This document shows positions 37,087-47,260 of a stretch of 64,000 nucleotides of DNA, piece after piece. Position numbers and translations under genes: made by a program. The notes under the pieces were generated by a model. It had not been told where the DNA came from. It saw only the letters and a program-made list of their open reading frames with translations, and made no database searches. Source of the stretch: an uncultured Planctomycetaceae bacterium (GTDB lineage Bacteria > Planctomycetota > Planctomycetia > Planctomycetales > Planctomycetaceae). The DNA is taken from contig CAWFGE010000013.1 in NCBI GenBank assembly GCA_963815195.1, positions 448,001 through 512,000 of the forward strand. Direction: 5' to 3'. How positions within the stretch are numbered: position 1 is the first letter of the stretch; the number at the start of each line of letters is the position of its first letter.

Positions 37087-37230
37087 GTTGATTCATGAGC
37101 AAAGTGAAAGAAAATAGAGGATAGAAGTTGGAGGATAGCCGCTTCTAACCTCGATCTTCCATCCTCAATCCGGCGTGTGAAGGCAGGAGATTATCCTCCG
37201 CCAGGTCGCTCGTCATTCCGGTGCCTTTCC

Positions 37231-37345
37231 CTCGTTCCCAAGCTCTGCTTGGGAACGCACTCACGCGAAGCTCCGCTTCGCAACGCATCCATAACGCGAC
37301 CGTCTCCGAGTGGATTTGAGTCGCCCGACGGAGCTTGGGAACGAG
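37231..37345. repeat. REP-like element (family F)
   Basis: CTCGTTCCCAAGCTC...GAGCTTGGGAACGAG terminal inverted repeat. Confidence 0.75.
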
Positions 37346-37368
37346 GGTAGAAAATGCACCGGCGGACA

Positions 37369-38215
37369 CTACTCTTCCGCCAGGTCGCTCGTCGCTCCGG
37401 TGCCTTGCTCTTGGATTCTCATGTCCACGTTGAAGGTGGAGGTGGACTGGTAATCGTCGCGCGAAGCGTTGCCGTCTTTCTCGTGGCGAACCACTTCGAC
37501 CTTCCAGCGGGCGAGGCCGAACGGAACCTGGTCGCTGGTCCAAATGTCGGCTTTGTTGACCGAACGATTGGTGGGGCTTTCCATCGTCAACTCGCCCTTG
37601 TAATGCGTCGCGGTGGTCACCGACTGAAGTTTGACTTGGGGAATCTTCGCCCTCGCCGGCGACCTCCAAGGTGCGATAATAAGCCAAGAGCGAGATCATC
37701 GGGTAGGTCTGCAAAACCCCGGACGTGATCGGTTCCACGGGCCGTTCCCCGAACCGGCGATAGCCTTTCACCACCGGCAGAAACGCCACGGGGATAGTGT
37801 CTTTGTCGATGACTCGACCTTCGACCGGCGGGCCGGTGATGCCCGCGATCGGCACGAGCACCTTGTAAATTCGCTGCCCGCCGGGGCCGGGTTTCAGAGT
37901 TCCGTCGCCGCCTTTTTCCGAAGCCGTGATGACTTTGATCTCGAACCATTGGCAATCCACGGTTTGGCCCTCGTACTCCGCTTGGGTCTTTTTGAGGGCT
38001 TTGAGCGTCAGGTGCCGACGCCAGGGGCCGAGTTTCAGGCGTTTATCGACCGGATCGTTGGGGCGGTCGTCGAACTGCGAGTAGTCGCCTTCGTACCGCA
38101 CCCAGGTTCCCTCGTCGGGGGCTTTCCAGATCAAGCCCTGTGCGGACGCCGAGGACGCGGTGTAAGCTCCGAGTCCGAAAACCAACAGATAACCCAAGAA
38201 AAATCGCCGAAACAT
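37369..38215 (-). CDS. Secreted hypothetical protein (frameshift ~37625)
   Basis: Signal peptide MFRRFFLGY...ASAQGLIW; GTWVRYEG; C-terminal WTSDQVPFGLARW. Confidence 0.7.
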
Positions 38216-38440
38216 AAGTTCCTCGATATTTGAAACCAATGATGGGAAATATGGAAACCCTGGATTGGGGAAGGAAGAGTCCTTCTTTCCAGTGTGACAC
38301 ACCGCCGCGGAGGTGGCAAGGGTTTTTCTCGGCGGCGGAATTTGACCACCACGAAAGTTTTTATCCGGCGCAAAAATCGGCACGGAGAATGTCGCTTGGG
38401 ACATCTTCCGCGCCGATTGGGGGGGGCCGTCGATTTGGGA

Positions 38441-38956
38441 TTATTTCGCGGCGGCGAAGGCGGCGTCGTAGTTGGGATGCTCGGCGATTTCCTTCACGTA
38501 TTCCACGTGCTTGACTTTCCCTGCGCCATCGACCACGAACACCGCCCGCACCAGCAATCGGTCAAGCGCACCGCCCGAAAGCAACACACCATAATCTTCG
38601 GCGAATTTCGTGCAGCGGTGGGCGCTTAAGGTTTTGACATTGTCCACGCCCTCGGCTCCGCACCAGCGTTTGATCGCGAACGGCAGATCCATGCTCACGA
38701 CCATGATCTCCACGCCCGGGTGGCTTTTGGCCAGGTCGTTGAATTTTTTGGTTTCTTCGCTGCAAACCGGGGTGTCCAGCGAGGGGACGGTGGCGATGAC
38801 GCGCGTTTTGCCCGCGGATTGGGCCAGCGTGACATCTTCCAGAGCCGGACTTTGCAGTTTGAAATCGGGAGCCGAGTCGCCCGCTTTGAGCACCGTTCCC
38901 GCGACATCCACGGGGTTGCCTTTAAATGTCACCGCATCATTTCGCACATTGGCCAT
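38441..38956 (-). CDS. tpx: Thiol peroxidase (atypical 2-Cys peroxiredoxin)
   Basis: [44 protein letters not shown]. Confidence 0.95.
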
Positions 38957-39112
38957 CGTGTGATCCTTCCATATAATGAAGATTCCAAAAGGGAGAGTCC
39001 CGCTCACAATCCGCAGTATCCCAACTGCCGCCCAAGTTGCAAGTCTGTCGGCGGCCAGACTGGGAGATGGGGAGAGCCGAGGCGAAAACTCAAATACACA
39101 ACGGACAGCGGA

Positions 39113-40947
39113 ATGGCACGATCGGTTTATGATTTTGACGTCGTGGTCGTGGGAGCCGGGCATGCGGGCTGCGAGGCGGCATTGGCGGCGGCTCGCATCG
39201 GGGCGAAAACCGCGCTTTTGACCATGAACTGCGACACCGTGGCCCAGATGAGTTGCAACCCCGCCATCGGAGGCGTGGCCAAGGGGCAGATCGTCCGCGA
39301 GATCGACGCCCTGGGCGGCGAGATGGGCCGGGTCACCGACGAGACCGCCCTGCAGTTCCGCATGCTCAACCGCGCCAAAGGCCCGGCCATGCACAGCCCC
39401 CGCGCCAGGCCGACAAAAAAGCCTACCAGTTCCTGATGAAGCAGCGGGTCGAGGCCCAGGAAAATCTCGTGCTTCGCCAGGAAATGGCCGAGGGCCTAAT
39501 CGTCGAAAACGGAGCCGTCGCCGGGCTAAAAGTCCGCGGCGATGCGATGTATCGGGCGAAAGCGGTGGTGCTGACCACGGGCACGTTTTTGCAGGCCGTG
39601 ATGCACACCGGCGAATCCAAAACCCAAGGCGGCCGGGCCGGCGAAGGCACCACGGGCACGCTGTCCGATTGCCTCTCGGCGTTGGGGTTTGAGCTGGAAC
39701 GATTCAAGACCGGCACGCCCGCCCGCTTGAACGGCCGCACGATCGATTATTCCCTCCTCGAACTCCAGCCCGGCGACGACGACCCGCAGCCGTTTTCGTT
39801 TCTGACCGACCGCCTCACGCAGACGCAGCTTCCCTGTTACATCACGCACACCAATGCCGGCGTCCACGAGATCATCCGGGCCAATCTCGACCGGGCCCCG
39901 ATGTATTGCGGGCAGATTTCCTCGACGGGGCCGCGGTATTGTCCGAGCATCGAGGACAAAGTCGTGCGGTTCGCCGAGCGGGATTCGCACCAGATTTTCC
40001 TGGAGCCCGAAGGCTACAACACGCACGAAGTGTACTGCAACGGCATCTCCACCAGCCTCCCGCGGGACGTGCAGGACGAGATGGTCCGCCGGATTCGCGG
40101 CTTGGAGAACGCGGAGATCATGCGGTACGGCTACGCGGTGGAATACGATTTCGCTCCGCCCACGCAACTCAAGGCGACCTTGGAGACCAAGCGCGTGGCC
40201 GGTCTGTATTTCGCGGGCCAACTCAACGGCACGACCGGTTATGAAGAAGCCGCGGGCCAGGGACTTTTGGCGGGAGCGAACGCGGCCCTCAAGATCGCCG
40301 ATCAGCCGGCGTTGATTCTCGACCGCAGCCAGGCGTACTTGGGGGTGTTGATCGACGACCTCGTCACCAAAGGCGTCGATGAGCCTTACCGCATGTTTAC
40401 CTCGCGGGCGGAGTATCGGCTCTTGCTCCGGCACGACAACGCCGACCGCCGACTTACGCCCCTCGGCCGCCGGGCCGGGTTGGTGTCGGACGAACGCTGG
40501 CGTCGGCTGGAACGGCACGAAGCCGAGATCGCCCGCGCGACTGAACTCATCACCGGCCGCCGACATCAGGGGGCGACGTTGGAAGAGCTTCTCCGCCGGC
40601 CCGAAAACAATTGGGACAAGATTTCCGCGGTCTCGCCTGAAGCGGCGGAACTCGATCTCTCAGCATTAGCCCGGCATCAGGTGGAAGTCGAAACCAAATA
40701 CGCGGGCTACATCCGCCGGCAGTTGGCGACCGTGAACAAGCAGCAAAAGGTGCAAAACGTGCGGATTCCCGACACGTTCGACTACATCGCCATCCCGCAG
40801 CTTCGCGCAGAGGCCAAGGAAAAGCTGACCCGCATCCGCCCCCAAAACCTGGGCCAAGCCGGCCGCATCAGCGGCATCACCCCGGCCGACCTCGCGGTGT
40901 TGATGCTGTATCTCGACAACCCCAACCGCAGCGCCTCGACCCGCTGA
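39113..40947 (+). CDS. mnmG: tRNA uridine-5-carboxymethylaminomethyl synthesis enzyme (frameshift ~39405)
   Basis: [68 protein letters not shown]. Confidence 0.95.
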
Positions 40948-41115: not shown

Positions 41116-42711
41116 TCAAGCGGGTTTGACGTGCGGGTCGCCGGCTTCGACGACGAAGGACGCCCGTGTGGAACACTTGCCGCCCGGCTTTTGAATATCG
41201 TCGACCACCACGTAATCGCTGGTCCAAGTCTCCGGCGTGACGCGGCAGCGGACGTAGCCCCGCTCGCGGTTGTGGAACTTGACGCAGGGATTGTCCGCGA
41301 GCAGTTTTTCGAGATCGCGCGGTTTGTCCTCGCCGTTGCCGCCGCTGCTGATCGATGTGCCCACGAACTCGGTGGCGACGACGGCTTCGCCGGGTTTCCG
41401 GTCATCGATGCGGAGTTCGTTGACCCAGTTGGAATGAATGTCCCCCGTGAGCACAACGGGATTGGGCACCCGCCGCTCGGCGATGTACTTCATCAACTGC
41501 ATTCGCTCGTAAGCGCAGCCGGGCCATTGATCCATCGAATACACCGGCGGCTCCATGCCCTTCGCGAAGCCGACGAGGCCCATCATCACCTGCTGGGCGA
41601 GCACGTTCCACGTCGCTTGGGACGCGATCAGCGATCGGTCCAGCCAGTCCCGCTGTTTGTCTCCCAACAACGAATTGCCGCGGTAGAGGGCCGCATCGTT
41701 CAAGGGCGATTTCTTGTCGCCGTTGGGCTGATCGGTGCGGTATTGCCGGGTGTCCAATACGAAAAAGTCGGCGAGCCGGCCGAAGGGAGACCGGCGGTAA
41801 AGCTGCATGTGCGGTCCCTTGGGCAGCGAACGCCGGCGGAGAGGCATCATCTCGTAATACGCCTGATACGCATTGGCCCGCCGGATAAGATAATCCACAG
41901 GGTCGGCATCAAGCTCTTCGGAAACATCTCCCGCGCAATTGTTGTCGAACTCATGATCGTCCCAGGTCAAAAGCCACGGGCATTTCGCGTGCATGCCGTG
42001 GAGCAAGGGGTCGGCCCGGTACTGCGAATGCCGGACGCGGTAATCGCCCAGCGATTCGAGTTCCGGGCCGAGGTGCGTCCGCACCTTGCCGTTTTTGCCG
42101 GAGGCGTATTCGTAGATGTAATCGCCCAGATGGATCACCAGGTCGAGGTCGTCTTGGGCCATCTGCTCGTAGGCGGTGAACAGGCCCTGCTCGAAATTCT
42201 GGCAGGAGGCGAAGGCGAATTTCAGTTCTCCCGGGAGCTGAGCCGGGCTGGGGAACGTGCGGGTGCGGCCGATGGGACTCTCCGCATCCCCGGCCCGGAA
42301 ACGATACCAATACCAGCGGTCCGGCTTGAGGCCTTCGACTTCGACGTGAACCGAATGTCCCAACTGCGGCGTGGCCAGGGTCTTGCCGGAAGCGACGGTT
42401 TTCTTCATCGCGTCGTCTTCTGCCACTTCCCACTTCACTTCGACCGCCGAGGGCGGCATGCCGCCGTGGGGATCGAAAGGTTCGGGAGCGAGCCGGGTCC
42501 AAATCACCACGCCCCGGCTCCAGGGATCGCCCGATGCGACGCCCAGGGCAAAGGGTTCCTTCGGAAAATTGGGGATCGCTTCGGCCATCGCCGCGCGGTT
42601 CAAAAGCGGTAGCGAAGACAGCGCGGCCCCGTAGCCCAAAAACAACCGCCGGCTGATGCCCCCTTCATAACGCACCGCTTCGCGAAGATTCCGCAGATCG
42701 AACATCGTCAA
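41116..42711 (-). CDS. phoD: Alkaline phosphatase D, Tat-exported
   Basis: SRRLFL Tat motif, FALGVASGDP, FASCQN, HLGDYIYE, WDDHE, LDTRQYR, LTGDIH. Confidence 0.9.
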   Translation of the reverse strand: MTMFDLRNLREAVRYEGGISRRLFLGYGAALSSLPLLNRAAMAEAIPNFPKEPFALGVASGDPWSRGVVIWTRLAPEPFDPHGGMPPSAVEVKWEVAEDDAMKKTVASGKTLATPQLGHSVHVEVEGLKPDRWYWYRFRAGDAESPIGRTRTFPSPAQLPGELKFAFASCQNFEQGLFTAYEQMAQDDLDLVIHLGDYIYEYASGKNGKVRTHLGPELESLGDYRVRHSQYRADPLLHGMHAKCPWLLTWDDHEFDNNCAGDVSEELDADPVDYLIRRANAYQAYYEMMPLRRRSLPKGPHMQLYRRSPFGRLADFFVLDTRQYRTDQPNGDKKSPLNDAALYRGNSLLGDKQRDWLDRSLIASQATWNVLAQQVMMGLVGFAKGMEPPVYSMDQWPGCAYERMQLMKYIAERRVPNPVVLTGDIHSNWVNELRIDDRKPGEAVVATEFVGTSISSGGNGEDKPRDLEKLLADNPCVKFHNRERGYVRCRVTPETWTSDYVVVDDIQKPGGKCSTRASFVVEAGDPHVKPA

Positions 42712-43056
42712 AAAGTCCTTATGAGTTAGCAGCGGTTCAGAAATTAGCCGCAGGGCGCTAGCCTGGGCTGTTAAAAAATTGGTATTGAAGTCTAAAAACG
42801 CGGGTTCTGGCTTGCGCCACCTTTGTTCTCGTTTTTTTGGAAAGCATTAGGGCCGAAGGCCCGGCTCTCTGTCAGCCCAGGGCCAGCGCAGCGCCGCCCT
42901 GGGTTACGGATGATCCATGAAACGCAAGCCCCACGGGGGCGGCCCCTCTCGCCACGGAACAAGGCATCGCGCATTTCCGATTTCGGGCCGCCCCGTTGGG
43001 GCTTCGGCATTTTGCTCGTTCCCGTTCCCAGGGCTGCGCCCTTATAGGATTTGCTG

Positions 43057-43360
43057 AGGGATGGATCGGCCGCGGGAGAGGGCGGGGGGACGCAAGTCTC
43101 TCCCCACGGACTCTTCCGCGCCGGAGCCGATCCAGCGCCGTTTTTTTCCTGTTTTTCCAGCCCCAACTTTGAGAGGATCAAAATCAGGCACGCGTCGCCC
43201 CGCTACGAATCGTGCGCCCCATCGCTTCAACGATTGAGCCCAGACTTTCGAGCGGGACGATGCTCTTGGGAACCAACGAATCACTCCAGATGATGACGCC
43301 AAAACGTCTCGGACTATAAGGTTTTCGCCCGCTCCCAAGATCGCGTGCCCTTTTTGATTG
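43057..43360 (+). ncRNA. IS110 bridge RNA
   Basis: 5' hairpin 43062-43134; target loop with TGCGCCC (43213-43219) and AGCCCAG (43237-43243); donor loop with CAGATG (43287-43292) and CTATAAG (43314-43320). Confidence 0.8.
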
Positions 43361-43389
43361 TGTTTCACTTTAACAGGAGACGATCCCCC

Positions 43390-44673
43390 ATGCACTCGAA
43401 TTTGCTCGACCCCAATGCCTGTGTGCTGATCGGCCTCGATTGGGCCGACCGCGAACATGCCGTCTGCCGGCTGCTTCCCGACGGCGGAACCGAACACCGG
43501 CAACTCGAACACACGCCCGAAGCGATTGCCGACTGGCTCGCCGGCCTGCGGAAGCAATTCCCCGGTCGCCCGATTCGGATCGCGTTGGAGCAAAGCCGCG
43601 GCGCGCTGATGAACGCGCTCCGCCGTTTCGCCGACCTGGAACTCGAACTGTATCCCATCAATCCCAAGCAGCTGGCCCGCTATCGGGACGCGATTCATCC
43701 TTCGGGAGCGAAATCCGATCCAGACGATGCGCAGCTCTTGGCCCGCTTTCTGCAAAACCATCAGGAGCAACTCCTCCCGTTCGTGGCGGACGATCCCGAA
43801 ACCCGCCGCCTGGCCGAGTTGTCCGAACTTCGCCGCAAGCTGGTCGATGACCGCAAAACCCTTGTGCAGAAGCTCGAAGGCACGCTCAAGCTGTATTTTC
43901 CGCAACTGCTCGAATGGTGTGCCGGCAAGAGTCGCCAACCCCTGTTGCTCGCCGTGCTTCGCCGCTGGCCGAGCTTGGGCGATCTTAAGCGGGCTCATCC
44001 CAAAACGCTGCGCACGTTCCTCGCCGAGCATGGCCTGCGGAACCCCGACCAGCAAACCGAGTGGATCGACAACGTCCGCCCCGCCACCCCGTTGACCGAG
44101 GATGCCAGTTTGATCGAACCCCGCGCGATGTACGCCCAAAGTCTCGGCCGGCAAATCGAGGAACTGAACGAGGCCATTGCCAAATTCGAGAAGCAACTGG
44201 ACGAGGCGACCACCGCGCATCCCGACCACGAACTGTTCCGCTCGCTGCCCGGTGCCGGCGACGTCCTCACGCCGCGACTCATCGTGGCGATGGGCTCCGA
44301 CCGGGACCGCTACCAAGACGCCGGGGACGTGCAATCCAAAAGCGGCATCGCCCCGATCACCAAGCAAAGCGGGAAGACCCGGCTCGTGTTGTCGCGAATC
44401 GCCTGCCCCAAATTTCTCCGGCAGACATTCCACGAGTTCGCCGACCAGGCCCGCCGCTGGAGCGATTGGTCCCGAGCGTTCTATCAAATGAAACGCGCGG
44501 CCGGCATGAGCCACCACGCCGCGGTCCGCGCCTTGGCCTTCAAATGGATTCGCATCATCTTTCGGATGTGGCAAACCGGCACCCCTTACTCGGAAATGAA
44601 GTACCAGGAACAACTCACAATCAGAAACAGCCCCGTCTGGAATTTATTGGAAACAACAACAGAAACCACCTGA
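43390..44673 (+). CDS. IS110 DEDD recombinase/transposase
   Basis: RBS AGGAGA; IGLDWA, IALEQ, KSDPDDA (DEDD); LPGAG, GIAPITKQSG; no frameshift. Confidence 0.95.
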   Translation: MHSNLLDPNACVLIGLDWADREHAVCRLLPDGGTEHRQLEHTPEAIADWLAGLRKQFPGRPIRIALEQSRGALMNALRRFADLELELYPINPKQLARYRDAIHPSGAKSDPDDAQLLARFLQNHQEQLLPFVADDPETRRLAELSELRRKLVDDRKTLVQKLEGTLKLYFPQLLEWCAGKSRQPLLLAVLRRWPSLGDLKRAHPKTLRTFLAEHGLRNPDQQTEWIDNVRPATPLTEDASLIEPRAMYAQSLGRQIEELNEAIAKFEKQLDEATTAHPDHELFRSLPGAGDVLTPRLIVAMGSDRDRYQDAGDVQSKSGIAPITKQSGKTRLVLSRIACPKFLRQTFHEFADQARRWSDWSRAFYQMKRAAGMSHHAAVRALAFKWIRIIFRMWQTGTPYSEMKYQEQLTIRNSPVWNLLETTTETT

Positions 44674-44680
44674 AACCCAC

Positions 44681-44686
44681 TTGAAA
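44681..44686 (+). promoter_or_regulatory. -35 box of the IS110 circle-junction promoter
   Basis: TTGAAA; after circularisation at CT it lies 17 bp from TAGGAT (43045-43050). Confidence 0.8.
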
Positions 44687-45145
44687 AAACCTCAGATGTC
44701 TGGGCTGACATCGGGCCGGACCTTCGGCCCTTTTTCTCAAATTTGAAACAGTTGAATTTACGAACGGTCGAAAAGCTGCGCAAAGACAAATCGTCGTCAA
44801 CACCAAATTTTTAAGGGCCCAGCGCTAGCCCCGGTTCACTGGGATAACCGGACGCTAGCACATTCCGGCTGTGATTGAAAAGTTGCCTGGATGAGCCGCA
44901 GGGCGCTACCGTGAAACAAAACTCCTACTAAAAAGTGTAGCGGGGCTTGATGAAGATACAATGAACGGGGTGCAAAGAGTTCGTCAAACCCCCGGGGCGG
45001 CGAAATGACCAATGAATGAATGACCAAAACTTGAAACATGCAACTGGAAACTGCCGGACAACGGATACGGACCAATGGCAGAATCCGCCGGATTTGCTAC
45101 ATTGCCGGGGGATTGTCTCTCTTGGTCCTTTTGCTTTGAATTGCC

Positions 45146-47260
45146 ATGCCGCCCGAACCGAATCGATTCTTCAATCGCGAACTGAGTTGGTTGGAATTCA
45201 ATCAGCGGGTGCTCGACGAGGCCCGCGACGCCTCGATTCCGCTCTTGGAACGGCTGAAATTCCTGGCGATCACCGCGTCCAACCTGGATGAGTTCTTCAT
45301 GGTCCGCGTGGGCGGTTTGCAAATGGTCTCCGCCCAGGGCAGCACCAAGACCGATCCCTCCGGGATGACCGCCGACGAGCAGCTCGACGCCATCAGCCGC
45401 CGAACCCACAAAATGACGGCCGACCAGTGCAAATGCTTTCTGGCCGACCTGGAACCCGCCCTTGCGCAAGCGGGCTTCCGCCGATTGGCGGGCGATCAAC
45501 TCACCCGGGAGCAACTCCAATTTGTTGAGCAGTTGTTTGCGGAAGAGATCTCGGCCGTGCTCTCGCCGATGGCGGTTTCCGCGGACGAGGAGTTCCCGCT
45601 GTTGGGGAACCAGACGCTCAACGTCTGCGTGCAGCTCAAGCCGAAGGCCAAGGATGAGGCCCCGCGGTTCGCGCTGATTCCTTTTGGGCTGTACTCCCGC
45701 CGGTTTATCACTTTGCCCATGCAGGAGCGGAGCGATCAGTACGAATACATTCTTCTGGAAGATGTGGTCAACCTGTTCGCCGGCCGGTTTTTTCCCGGCG
45801 AGCCGGTGGTGGAGTGCGTGCCGTTTCGCATCACCCGCAATGCCGACCTCAGCGTGCGCGAAGATCTCGCCGCGGATTTGATGGTCAGCATGGAGGAGAT
45901 CCTCGATGCCCGGAAACAAAGCGCCTGCGTACGCCTGGAGATTTCTGACAATTGCACATCGGCGACGCTCTCGTTTTTGCGGAACACGCTCGGCGTCCTG
46001 GAGAACAGCGTGTATGCCTCGCCGGGGCCCTTGGATCTGGCGGCGTTCATGCGGCTGACCGATGTCAAAGGCTTCGATCCCCTGAAGTACGAGTCCTGGC
46101 AGCCGCAGCCTTCGCCCAACGTCGATCCGCAAACCAGCCTGTTTGAAACGCTCCGCGACCGCGACGTGCTGCTCTACCATCCCTTCGAGAGCTTCGAACC
46201 GGTGCTCCGGCTTATCGAAGAAGCCGCGGCGGATCCGGACGTGCTGGCGATCAAGCAGACCTTGTACCGCACGAGCCGCGACAGCCCCGTGGCCGCCGCC
46301 TTGATGCGGGCGGCGGAGAACGGCAAATACGTCACCGCCCTCGTGGAGCTCAAAGCCCGCTTCGACGAAGCCCGCAACATCGAATGGGCGAAGAACCTCG
46401 AGCAAGCCGGCGTGCAGGTGATCTACGGCGTCAAAGGCCTCAAGACGCACGCCAAGATCTGCGTGATCATCCGCCGGGAACCGCAGGGCATCAAACGCTA
46501 CGTCCACTTCGGGACCGGCAACTACAACGAGCAAACCGCCCGGCTCTACACCGACGCCAGCCTGATGACCGCCGACGAAATCCTCGGCTCCGATGCGACC
46601 GCGTTCTTCAATGCGGTCACCGGCTATTCGCAGATTCACGAATTCCAAAAGCTCGCCGCCGCCCCGATTAGCCTGCGCGACAAACTACGGGAACTGATCG
46701 AGGGCGAAATCGAGCGGAAGAAACAAAACCAGGCCGCGAAAATCGTGGCCAAAATGAATTCGCTCGCCGATCCGGCACTGATCGATGCCCTCTATGCCGC
46801 GTCGGAAGCCGGCGTGAATGTGGAACTCAACATCCGGGGCATTTGTTGCCTCCGGCCGGGCGTGAAGGGCCTCAGCGAGAATATCAAAGTTGTGAGCATC
46901 ATCGACCGGTTTCTGGAGCACAGCCGGATCTTTTCGTTTCATCACGGCGGGGACGATGTGGTGTATATTTCCAGTGCCGACTGGATGCCCCGCAACCTCG
47001 ACCGCCGGGTGGAGCTATTGGTCCCCGTCGAAGACAACAGAGCCCGCCAGCAGTTGCTCCGGGTGTTAAGTTCCTCGATGAAAGACACGGTCAAAGCCCG
47101 GCGGCTGACGGCGGACGGGCAGTACAAAAAAATCCGCTCCAAAACCGCCCACCGCAGCCAGGAAAGCCTGTATCAAGCCGCCTGCCGGGCCACCGCCCGC
47201 GCCGCCAAGACCCAAGCCGTCGCCTTCGAACCCCACCGCGCCCCGGAGGACAACGGGTGA
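45146..47260 (+). CDS. ppk1: Polyphosphate kinase 1
   Basis: FNRELSWLEFNQRVL, SNLDEFFMVRV, LYHPFESF, IKQTLYRT, ELKARFDE, LKTHAK, GTGNYN, RFLEHSR, SADWMPRNLDRRVE. Confidence 0.97.
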   Translation: MPPEPNRFFNRELSWLEFNQRVLDEARDASIPLLERLKFLAITASNLDEFFMVRVGGLQMVSAQGSTKTDPSGMTADEQLDAISRRTHKMTADQCKCFLADLEPALAQAGFRRLAGDQLTREQLQFVEQLFAEEISAVLSPMAVSADEEFPLLGNQTLNVCVQLKPKAKDEAPRFALIPFGLYSRRFITLPMQERSDQYEYILLEDVVNLFAGRFFPGEPVVECVPFRITRNADLSVREDLAADLMVSMEEILDARKQSACVRLEISDNCTSATLSFLRNTLGVLENSVYASPGPLDLAAFMRLTDVKGFDPLKYESWQPQPSPNVDPQTSLFETLRDRDVLLYHPFESFEPVLRLIEEAAADPDVLAIKQTLYRTSRDSPVAAALMRAAENGKYVTALVELKARFDEARNIEWAKNLEQAGVQVIYGVKGLKTHAKICVIIRREPQGIKRYVHFGTGNYNEQTARLYTDASLMTADEILGSDATAFFNAVTGYSQIHEFQKLAAAPISLRDKLRELIEGEIERKKQNQAAKIVAKMNSLADPALIDALYAASEAGVNVELNIRGICCLRPGVKGLSENIKVVSIIDRFLEHSRIFSFHHGGDDVVYISSADWMPRNLDRRVELLVPVEDNRARQQLLRVLSSSMKDTVKARRLTADGQYKKIRSKTAHRSQESLYQAACRATARAAKTQAVAFEPHRAPEDNG

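Follow-up and report, generated by a model that had tools for sequence, protein, structure and literature searches.

An IS110-group element with a predicted bridge RNA and junction promoter in one arm of a REP-like repeat of a planctomycete genome

The described systems against which the present element can be set are IS621 of E. coli, from which the mechanism is taken here, and ISPpu9 and ISPpu10, through which the targeting of REP sequences by IS110 elements was known before. At native IS621 loci, both circles and emptied sites have been detected, and the linear copies show low read-through expression (PMC13626964). The same paper places excision in vitro about 2,000-fold under insertion, and describes an increase from one to three handshake pairs across insertion, a pattern that suppresses excision. 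Copy-out, in which the donor site stays occupied, is described in two preprints (10.64898/2026.08.31.748434 and 10.1101/2025.10.25.684509), and the formation of a circle and a promoter has been reported for ISEc21 (PMC11187229). The mechanism is already known, and the element described below is not in itself surprising. No paper on this element, or on IS110 elements in a planctomycete REP, was found among the titles and abstract starts searched; the element or its clade may already be catalogued.

We consider it very probable that the window (the whole stretch of 64,000 nucleotides that was analyzed) contains an IS110-group element that is intact and has spread recently, that a bridge RNA steers its recombinase to one arm of a repeat, and that its expression is driven by a sigma70-type promoter at the circle junction. 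The element occupies positions 43041..44701 on the plus strand (1661 bp including both CT cores) and lies between phoD (minus strand, directed away) and ppk1 (plus strand). The cores, at 43041..43042 and 44700..44701 (both read on the plus strand), are exactly where the first-pass annotation had placed a CT at each end. Target and donor have exactly these 2 nt in common, the neighboring bases on both sides being different in the two. To the left, the host repeat runs from 42847 to 43040 (arm A, the central palindrome, and the first half of arm B, recognized by inverted repeats I1 and I4 and by the family census), and the remainder of arm B follows the element at 44702..44731; neither part is assigned a strand. 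The two groups of the family are distinguished by which non-coding end is long (PMC11208160), and here the left non-coding end is 347 nt, with 26 nt from the stop codon to the right core. IS1111 elements carry their RNA in a long right end and have inverted repeats of 7-17 bp in a sub-terminal position, whereas this right end is short and only a 6-bp inverted match (43054-59/44690-95) is present. That match was also considered as a family feature and rejected: among 111 loci, its left-end pattern stands at the true end only in the window element and in one copy from a sister genome. Judged on sequence, every IS110-group feature that can be tested in this way is present and the IS1111 features fail.

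The gene at 43390..44673 (plus strand) encodes a 427-aa IS110 DEDD/serine recombinase; AGGAG is found at 43375-79, and an alternative GTG start at 43345. The protein contains both expected domains (PF01548 and PF02371) and scores 171.8 bits against NCBIfam NF033542, for which the cut-off is 140; the nearest named recombinases, at 56-61%, come mostly from Planctomycetota records. In an alignment with the IS621 recombinase (PDB 8wt6), whose catalytic residues are numbered D11/E60/D102/D105/S241 in PMC11208158, residues D17, E67, D110, D113, and S327 fall at these catalytic positions, and they are conserved in 68, 68, 68, 68, and 69 of 69 aligned proteins, respectively. No frameshift interrupts the ORF, and the earlier claim of an intact DEDD set and serine in an unbroken gene was correct on both counts.

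Five copies are present in the genome from which the window derives (G000): two on contig C13 and one each on C15, C18, and C19. The check proposed in the first-pass annotation, a search for different boundaries in other copies, was carried out; all five share their ends, as does a 93%-identical copy in the sister genome G001 (one of three same-genus genomes), and both the IS110 identity and the boundaries hold. A match at 1e-40 was found in 4 of the 41 genomes searched, G000 counted. The core dinucleotide is present at both boundaries of each G000 copy, and an empty target (C12:900523) has it once. Relative to the window copy, the C18 copy differs by one base, the C15 copy by a 1-bp insertion, the second C13 copy (C13b) by a 1-bp deletion and a 301-bp deletion, and the C19 copy by eight changes, including a 2-bp deletion inside the gene; identity is 99.5-100% where the copies align. 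The recombinase gene is intact in two of the five (window and C18) and carries indels in the other three; those of one base, in C13b and C15, could be assembly errors. Elsewhere in the window, a gene at 38720-40947 (plus strand), which from its motifs we take to be MnmG/GidA-like, looks split across two frames near 39400, and a gene at 37145-38404 (minus strand) also seems to shift frame; both breaks may be errors of the assembly, a point relevant to the indels seen in the other element copies.

The left flanks of the five insertion sites are only 66-90% identical and the right flanks 90-93%, against 99.5-100% for the elements, and similarity jumps at the CT cores; the copies therefore represent separate recent insertions. 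The window and C18 units align across 2.1 kb, including flanks, at 98.8%, which might suggest that an already occupied repeat was multiplied through duplication or gene conversion and that there were no separate guided insertions, but this reading is contradicted by the flank divergence and by the sharp rise in similarity at the cores, and we regard it as very improbable. Among contigs of the read run closest to the source, a single unbranched contig at a depth of 14.8 represents the element, and the outermost flanking contigs have depths of 3.4-5.4; this is in line with several copies, with the proviso that the run may not be independent.

The left non-coding end (43043..43389, plus strand) is predicted to encode a bridge RNA with target and donor loops. 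This was overlooked in the first-pass annotation and is probably why the element sits in a REP-like repeat. The region folds with z = -3.33, none of 100 shuffles being equally stable, and has a 5' hairpin at about 43062-43134. A scan of 42700-45200 found no Rfam family at its gathering score for the left end; two matches far under their gathering scores were dismissed. When the guides are held unpaired, the fold shows two stem-loop modules with internal loops, both on the plus strand: a predicted target-binding loop at 43192..43263, built of stem, loop, inner hairpin, loop, and stem, and a predicted donor-binding loop at 43264..43340. They carry four guides, all on the plus strand, in the IS621 order. 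The left target guide (LTG, 43213..43219) matches six left-flank bases and the core C. The right target guide (RTG, 43237..43245) comprises 7 nt at 43237-43 and the handshake AC at 43244-45, and is the reverse complement of 9 nt at the right junction. The left donor guide (LDG, 43287..43292) matches 44693-98 over 6 nt and changes with the donor in relatives L008 and L035, and the right donor guide (RDG, 43314..43322) comprises a donor match at 43314-20 and the handshake GT at 43321-22. The LTG match ending at the core C and the 6-nt LDG are both under IS621's 9 and 8 nt. When the left end was shuffled 20,000 times with its dinucleotides preserved, no shuffle contained three or more of the four guides. 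The target reads CC at positions 6-7, and the donor positions read GT; with the handshake bases AC and GT, no Watson-Crick handshake pair exists before the strand exchange of insertion and three exist after it.

Related elements were used to examine the guides. Of 141 loci, 111 were near full length once eight duplicates had been dropped; the right-end motif was present in 101 of these and a donor loop in 93, a single left-end candidate remained for 76, and 72, including the window and G001 copies, were scored. Relatives were chosen by end motifs from the window element, and divergent ends are consequently under-sampled. A first left-end motif proved too strict, finding few ends, and left ends were instead located through each relative's own right donor guide, which leaves the LTG match as an independent check on them. 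LTG matched the left flank at ≥7/8 positions in 49/72 elements, against 2.3% of swapped controls, and RTG matched the right flank at 7/7 in 48/72, against 2.1% of controls; the rows are relatives of each other, and these percentages are not independent trials. Twelve of the 72 rows were poor on one side, partly through a wrong register in the best-offset search. A test made without the left-end call gave a right-flank match of at least 5 nt in 38/80, against 0.09% of controls, and the first handshake base of the donor loop complements target position 7 in 67/72 elements. The predicted target guides thus covary with insertion flanks among the 72 related elements. The literature searched contained no mention of the 11-nt right-end motif with IS110, and the motif had no match in the PMC11208160 supplements as far as these were readable. 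One subclade (L120, L121, L010, L137, L115, L118, L141, L029, and others, the named members being Acidobacteriota) has a CC core, and both of its right guides are altered to fit CC. Separately, L032, from a record labelled Granulosicoccus (Pseudomonadota), groups with Planctomycetota L018 and L025 on a starred branch of the tree, reflecting either cross-phylum transfer or mis-binning.

All five G000 copies are inserted at one base of arm B of a repeat of ~200 bp with two inverted arms, one of a family of dispersed short palindromic repeats with about 90-100 arm-like sites in G000 and 24 in G001; it is termed REP-like for its palindromic repeats. Empty arm B folds into a hairpin with an 8-bp stem and the CT core in its 3' side, and the same hairpin forms when the flanks of the window element are rejoined. 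The 13-nt target of those rejoined flanks exists unoccupied at C12:900523. A census of 93 arm-like sites in G000, the bins of which are approximate, classed 5 as occupied, 42 as arm A, 26 as arm B without an insertion, and 20 as other. Only one of the 26 empty arm B sites matches the 13-nt target exactly, the other 25 being imperfect, and arm A has at least three mismatches to the target at every site. Perfect hairpin targets are therefore filled in 5/6 cases and imperfect ones in 0/25 (Fisher p 3.5e-5). One further perfect target, outside the repeat at C13:264250, is empty, making two empty exact 13-nt targets genome-wide; shorter target definitions leave 3-13 empty sites. Perfect targets in G000 are nearly exhausted.

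A stem-loop requirement has been published for ISPpu10 (bioRxiv 10.64898/2026.03.19.712850), and in target choice here the DNA hairpin of the repeat might likewise be needed alongside guide pairing, or outweigh it. The core does lie in the 3' arm of the 8-bp stem, all five insertions are at hairpin-bearing sites, and the lone perfect non-repeat site is empty. However, 5/6 versus 0/1 are numbers too small to carry this, and the match to the guides is enough by itself to tell occupied hairpins from empty ones, none of the 25 imperfect ones having been used. We regard a hairpin requirement as unlikely, though worth keeping in mind, and prefer direction by the predicted guides.

Two further features of the repeat were observed. 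A second, small type of palindromic repeat is present on both sides of the main one (window 42742-42765 and 44818-44913), and together the two types make the repeat unit between phoD and ppk1 a composite one. In addition, the target-bearing segment has been lost in about 9/37 arm-B sites of G000 (e.g., C12:853118, C15:508790, C16:46332, C18:197686, C19:238555, and C22:142872), versus loss of the hairpin in 0/37 arm-A sites; the same segment is missing from 2/24 arms in G001. Slippage is the simplest cause, because a 6-bp direct repeat borders the lost segment, but the losses may also represent escape from the element, or imprecise excision.

The copy in G001 (C25 about 390885-392542; L052; L146:6885-8542) argues against guided targeting: its guides are identical to those of the window element, but the target loop suits neither of its flanks, and that genome has two perfect hairpin targets that stay empty. 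In the five bases of the right flank that follow the core, four agree with the left end of the element itself, and the fifth is a G-U wobble. The copy is the only row of the 72 with a right flank resembling its own left end, and such resemblance occurs at 0.47% of CT sites in G000, taken as a stand-in for G001. An "RD-only half-match" class of insertion is described in preprint 10.64898/2026.08.31.748434, and these features fit it; all in all, we put the odds that the G001 copy is a natural donor-half-match insertion at about even. A truncated IS66 transposase adjoins the site, as does a Y2 transposase/integrase pair of IS91-like type, and no empty allele of the site was found in G000; the abutting IS66 remnant and the missing allele both count against a half-match, and a decayed tandem copy or a later rearrangement is a possible explanation.

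The -35 hexamer TTGAAA (44681..44686) and the -10 hexamer TAGGAT (43045..43050), both on the plus strand, are exactly where the first-pass annotation had put them, and joining the ends through one CT gives a spacer of 15 nt (44687-44701) plus 2 nt (43043-44), i.e., the 17 bp it had stated. In the linear form, the best -35 upstream of TAGGAT matches at 3/6 positions for spacers of 15-19 in the five copies, and at 1/6 for spacers of 16-18 in the window copy, and there is no -10 downstream of TTGAAA. A promoter scan of 42700-45200 returned no promoter-like site, and a search for a hybrid promoter in which TTGAAA would read outward through the right flank to ppk1 was negative. The assertion that a promoter forms only on circularization holds for the TTGAAA/TAGGAT pair itself, but IS621 also has low read-through expression from its linear form. 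As a control for chance, 300 kb of contig C13 contained a -10 at 16-18 bp behind 18 of 930 hexamers matching the -35 consensus at ≥5/6 positions.

The relatives add support through compensatory spacing. Of 70 unique end pairs, 69 have a TTG at a distance of 20-24 nt from where the core ends. Where the -35 distance is ≤21 nt, a T stands at +8 of the left end in 28/28 cases and at +6 in 1/28; where it is ≥23 nt, T is found at +6 in 31/35 and at +8 in 7/35, the T at +6 being absent from 4/35 of these long-register ends; at 22 nt, T is at +6 in 6/6. A -10 at 16-18 bp is kept in 65/69 end pairs, compared with a shuffled mean of 41.3 and a maximum of 54 in 10,000. The compensatory registers indicate that TAGGAT is the right -10 in the window element; TATAGG (+1 to +6), considered as an alternative, would leave a spacer of 15 and has no T at its position 6. 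On a quick tree the register switches at least four times. The tree-corrected covariation is suggestive rather than significant because only four independent pairs are available, which average 2.5 concordant, 0 opposite, and 1.5 uninformative (sign-test p 0.25). Overall, the junction promoter looks to be under selection for spacing.

The hexamers could of course be a by-product of conserved binding sites for the recombinase or guides and not a working promoter, as the left-end TATAG is fixed by the right donor guide and the tree-corrected test is not significant. But the -10 T at +6 or +8 is beyond the five guide-paired bases, it shifts with the position of a TTG that is 1.6 kb away in the linear form, and junction promoters have been demonstrated for IS621 (PMC11208160, PMC13626964). 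We find the by-product explanation improbable and retain the promoter.

Whether the element is still active, as the first-pass annotation thought probable, is a different matter from whether it was active recently. Copies at 99.5-100% among flanks at 66-90% point to recent activity, and this is as far as the sequences go; indels in three of the five genes and the lack of a circle junction in the G000 assembly weigh against continuing activity, which we nevertheless judge likely. The element may instead have been mobile recently and now be dormant, its junction rarely or never formed since the perfect targets were filled and most copies decaying. This is a minority reading, but the most plausible of the alternatives weighed here: three of five copies have indels, C19 has eight differences, only two empty exact 13-nt targets remain genome-wide, no junction is seen in the assembly or in run contigs, and there can be no read-through into the window copy from phoD because phoD points away. 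Conversely, the window and C18 genes are intact and one base apart, the single-base indels may be assembly errors, and rare circles are invisible in contig data. A back-joint was likewise absent from the contigs of four runs (X1-X4); contigs drop rare forms, and this is not evidence of absence. An empty-looking joint of 43041 to 44702 in run X2 was rejected as an excision product, as it has C for the core T and three other differences in the right part and probably belongs to another copy of the repeat.

By analogy with IS621, the element ends would join in a circle to form the sigma70-type promoter, which would transcribe the left-end bridge RNA, likely its main product. The RNA would pair with target and donor DNA, and composite RuvC-serine sites would cleave the top strand at CT and exchange strands. 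The guides would direct the recombinase to one hairpin arm of the REP-like repeat, and the handshake bases would favor insertion, so that copies build up in matching repeat arms. The first-pass annotation expected excision to restore the repeat without a scar. In sequence terms this stands, rejoining through one CT restoring the repeat exactly, but clean cut-out would be a minor and probably rare route; the change from zero to three handshake pairs across insertion suggests that excision is scarless yet disfavored, and circles may arise mainly by copy-out.

The element and its approximately 70 relatives represent natural bridge recombinases far from IS621 for which guides, donor, and handshake are mapped; with a naturally long right target guide, they are candidates for genome-editing orthologue screens. 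The two-register promoter offers comparative evidence for spacing selection on IS110 junction promoters, and filled versus empty repeat arms provide a within-genome read-out of mismatch tolerance. The off-target G001 copy may be a natural example of the half-match route of the 2026 preprint, which we found described from laboratory data only. A bolder reading sees a selfish repeat and an RNA-guided transposon engaged in an arms race, with five of six perfect targets filled, changed or lost targets immune, about a quarter of the targeted arms deleted versus none of the other arm, a natural half-match in a sister genome, and a promoter register repeatedly shifted to keep 17 bp. We consider this unlikely, but if true, element and host repeat would preserve a natural record of the IS110 life cycle.

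With respect to known systems, the best match to a solved structure is the ISCro4 recombinase (PDB 9t56; E 1.3e-9), which has the same two domains but is distant in sequence. The closest IS-named protein among the 15 plasmid matches listed is an ISEsa2-labelled transposase (NZ_CP056623.1, WP_191225826.1; 42% identity over 94% of the protein). That element shares a right end of TTG then CTCAG and similar loop-anchor motifs in its left end, but differs in the donor sequence after CTCAG and in target; no experimental study of it was found. IS621 (PDB 8wt6; PMC11208160, PMC11208158, PMC13626964) shares the CT core at both ends, the long left and short right end, the sigma70 promoter across joined ends and the two-loop bridge RNA in LTG-RTG-LDG-RDG order (both predicted here), the DEDD and serine catalytic set, and three handshake pairs after exchange. 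Its protein is distant (E 1.4e-7; a 328-aa PDB chain versus 427 aa here), and the left end here, at 347 nt, is longer. The natural RTG is 7 nt here and 4 nt in IS621, longer RTGs in orthologues having already been noted (PMC11208160); the LTG and LDG matches here are shorter on the core side, donor and target sequences are other ones, and handshake pairs go from 0 to 3 instead of 1 to 3 (PMC13626964). ISPpu9 and ISPpu10 of Pseudomonas putida differ in host and repeat family, but share the insertion of several copies in REP hairpins, and for ISPpu10 a CT duplication like that found here has been reported (bioRxiv 10.64898/2026.03.19.712850).
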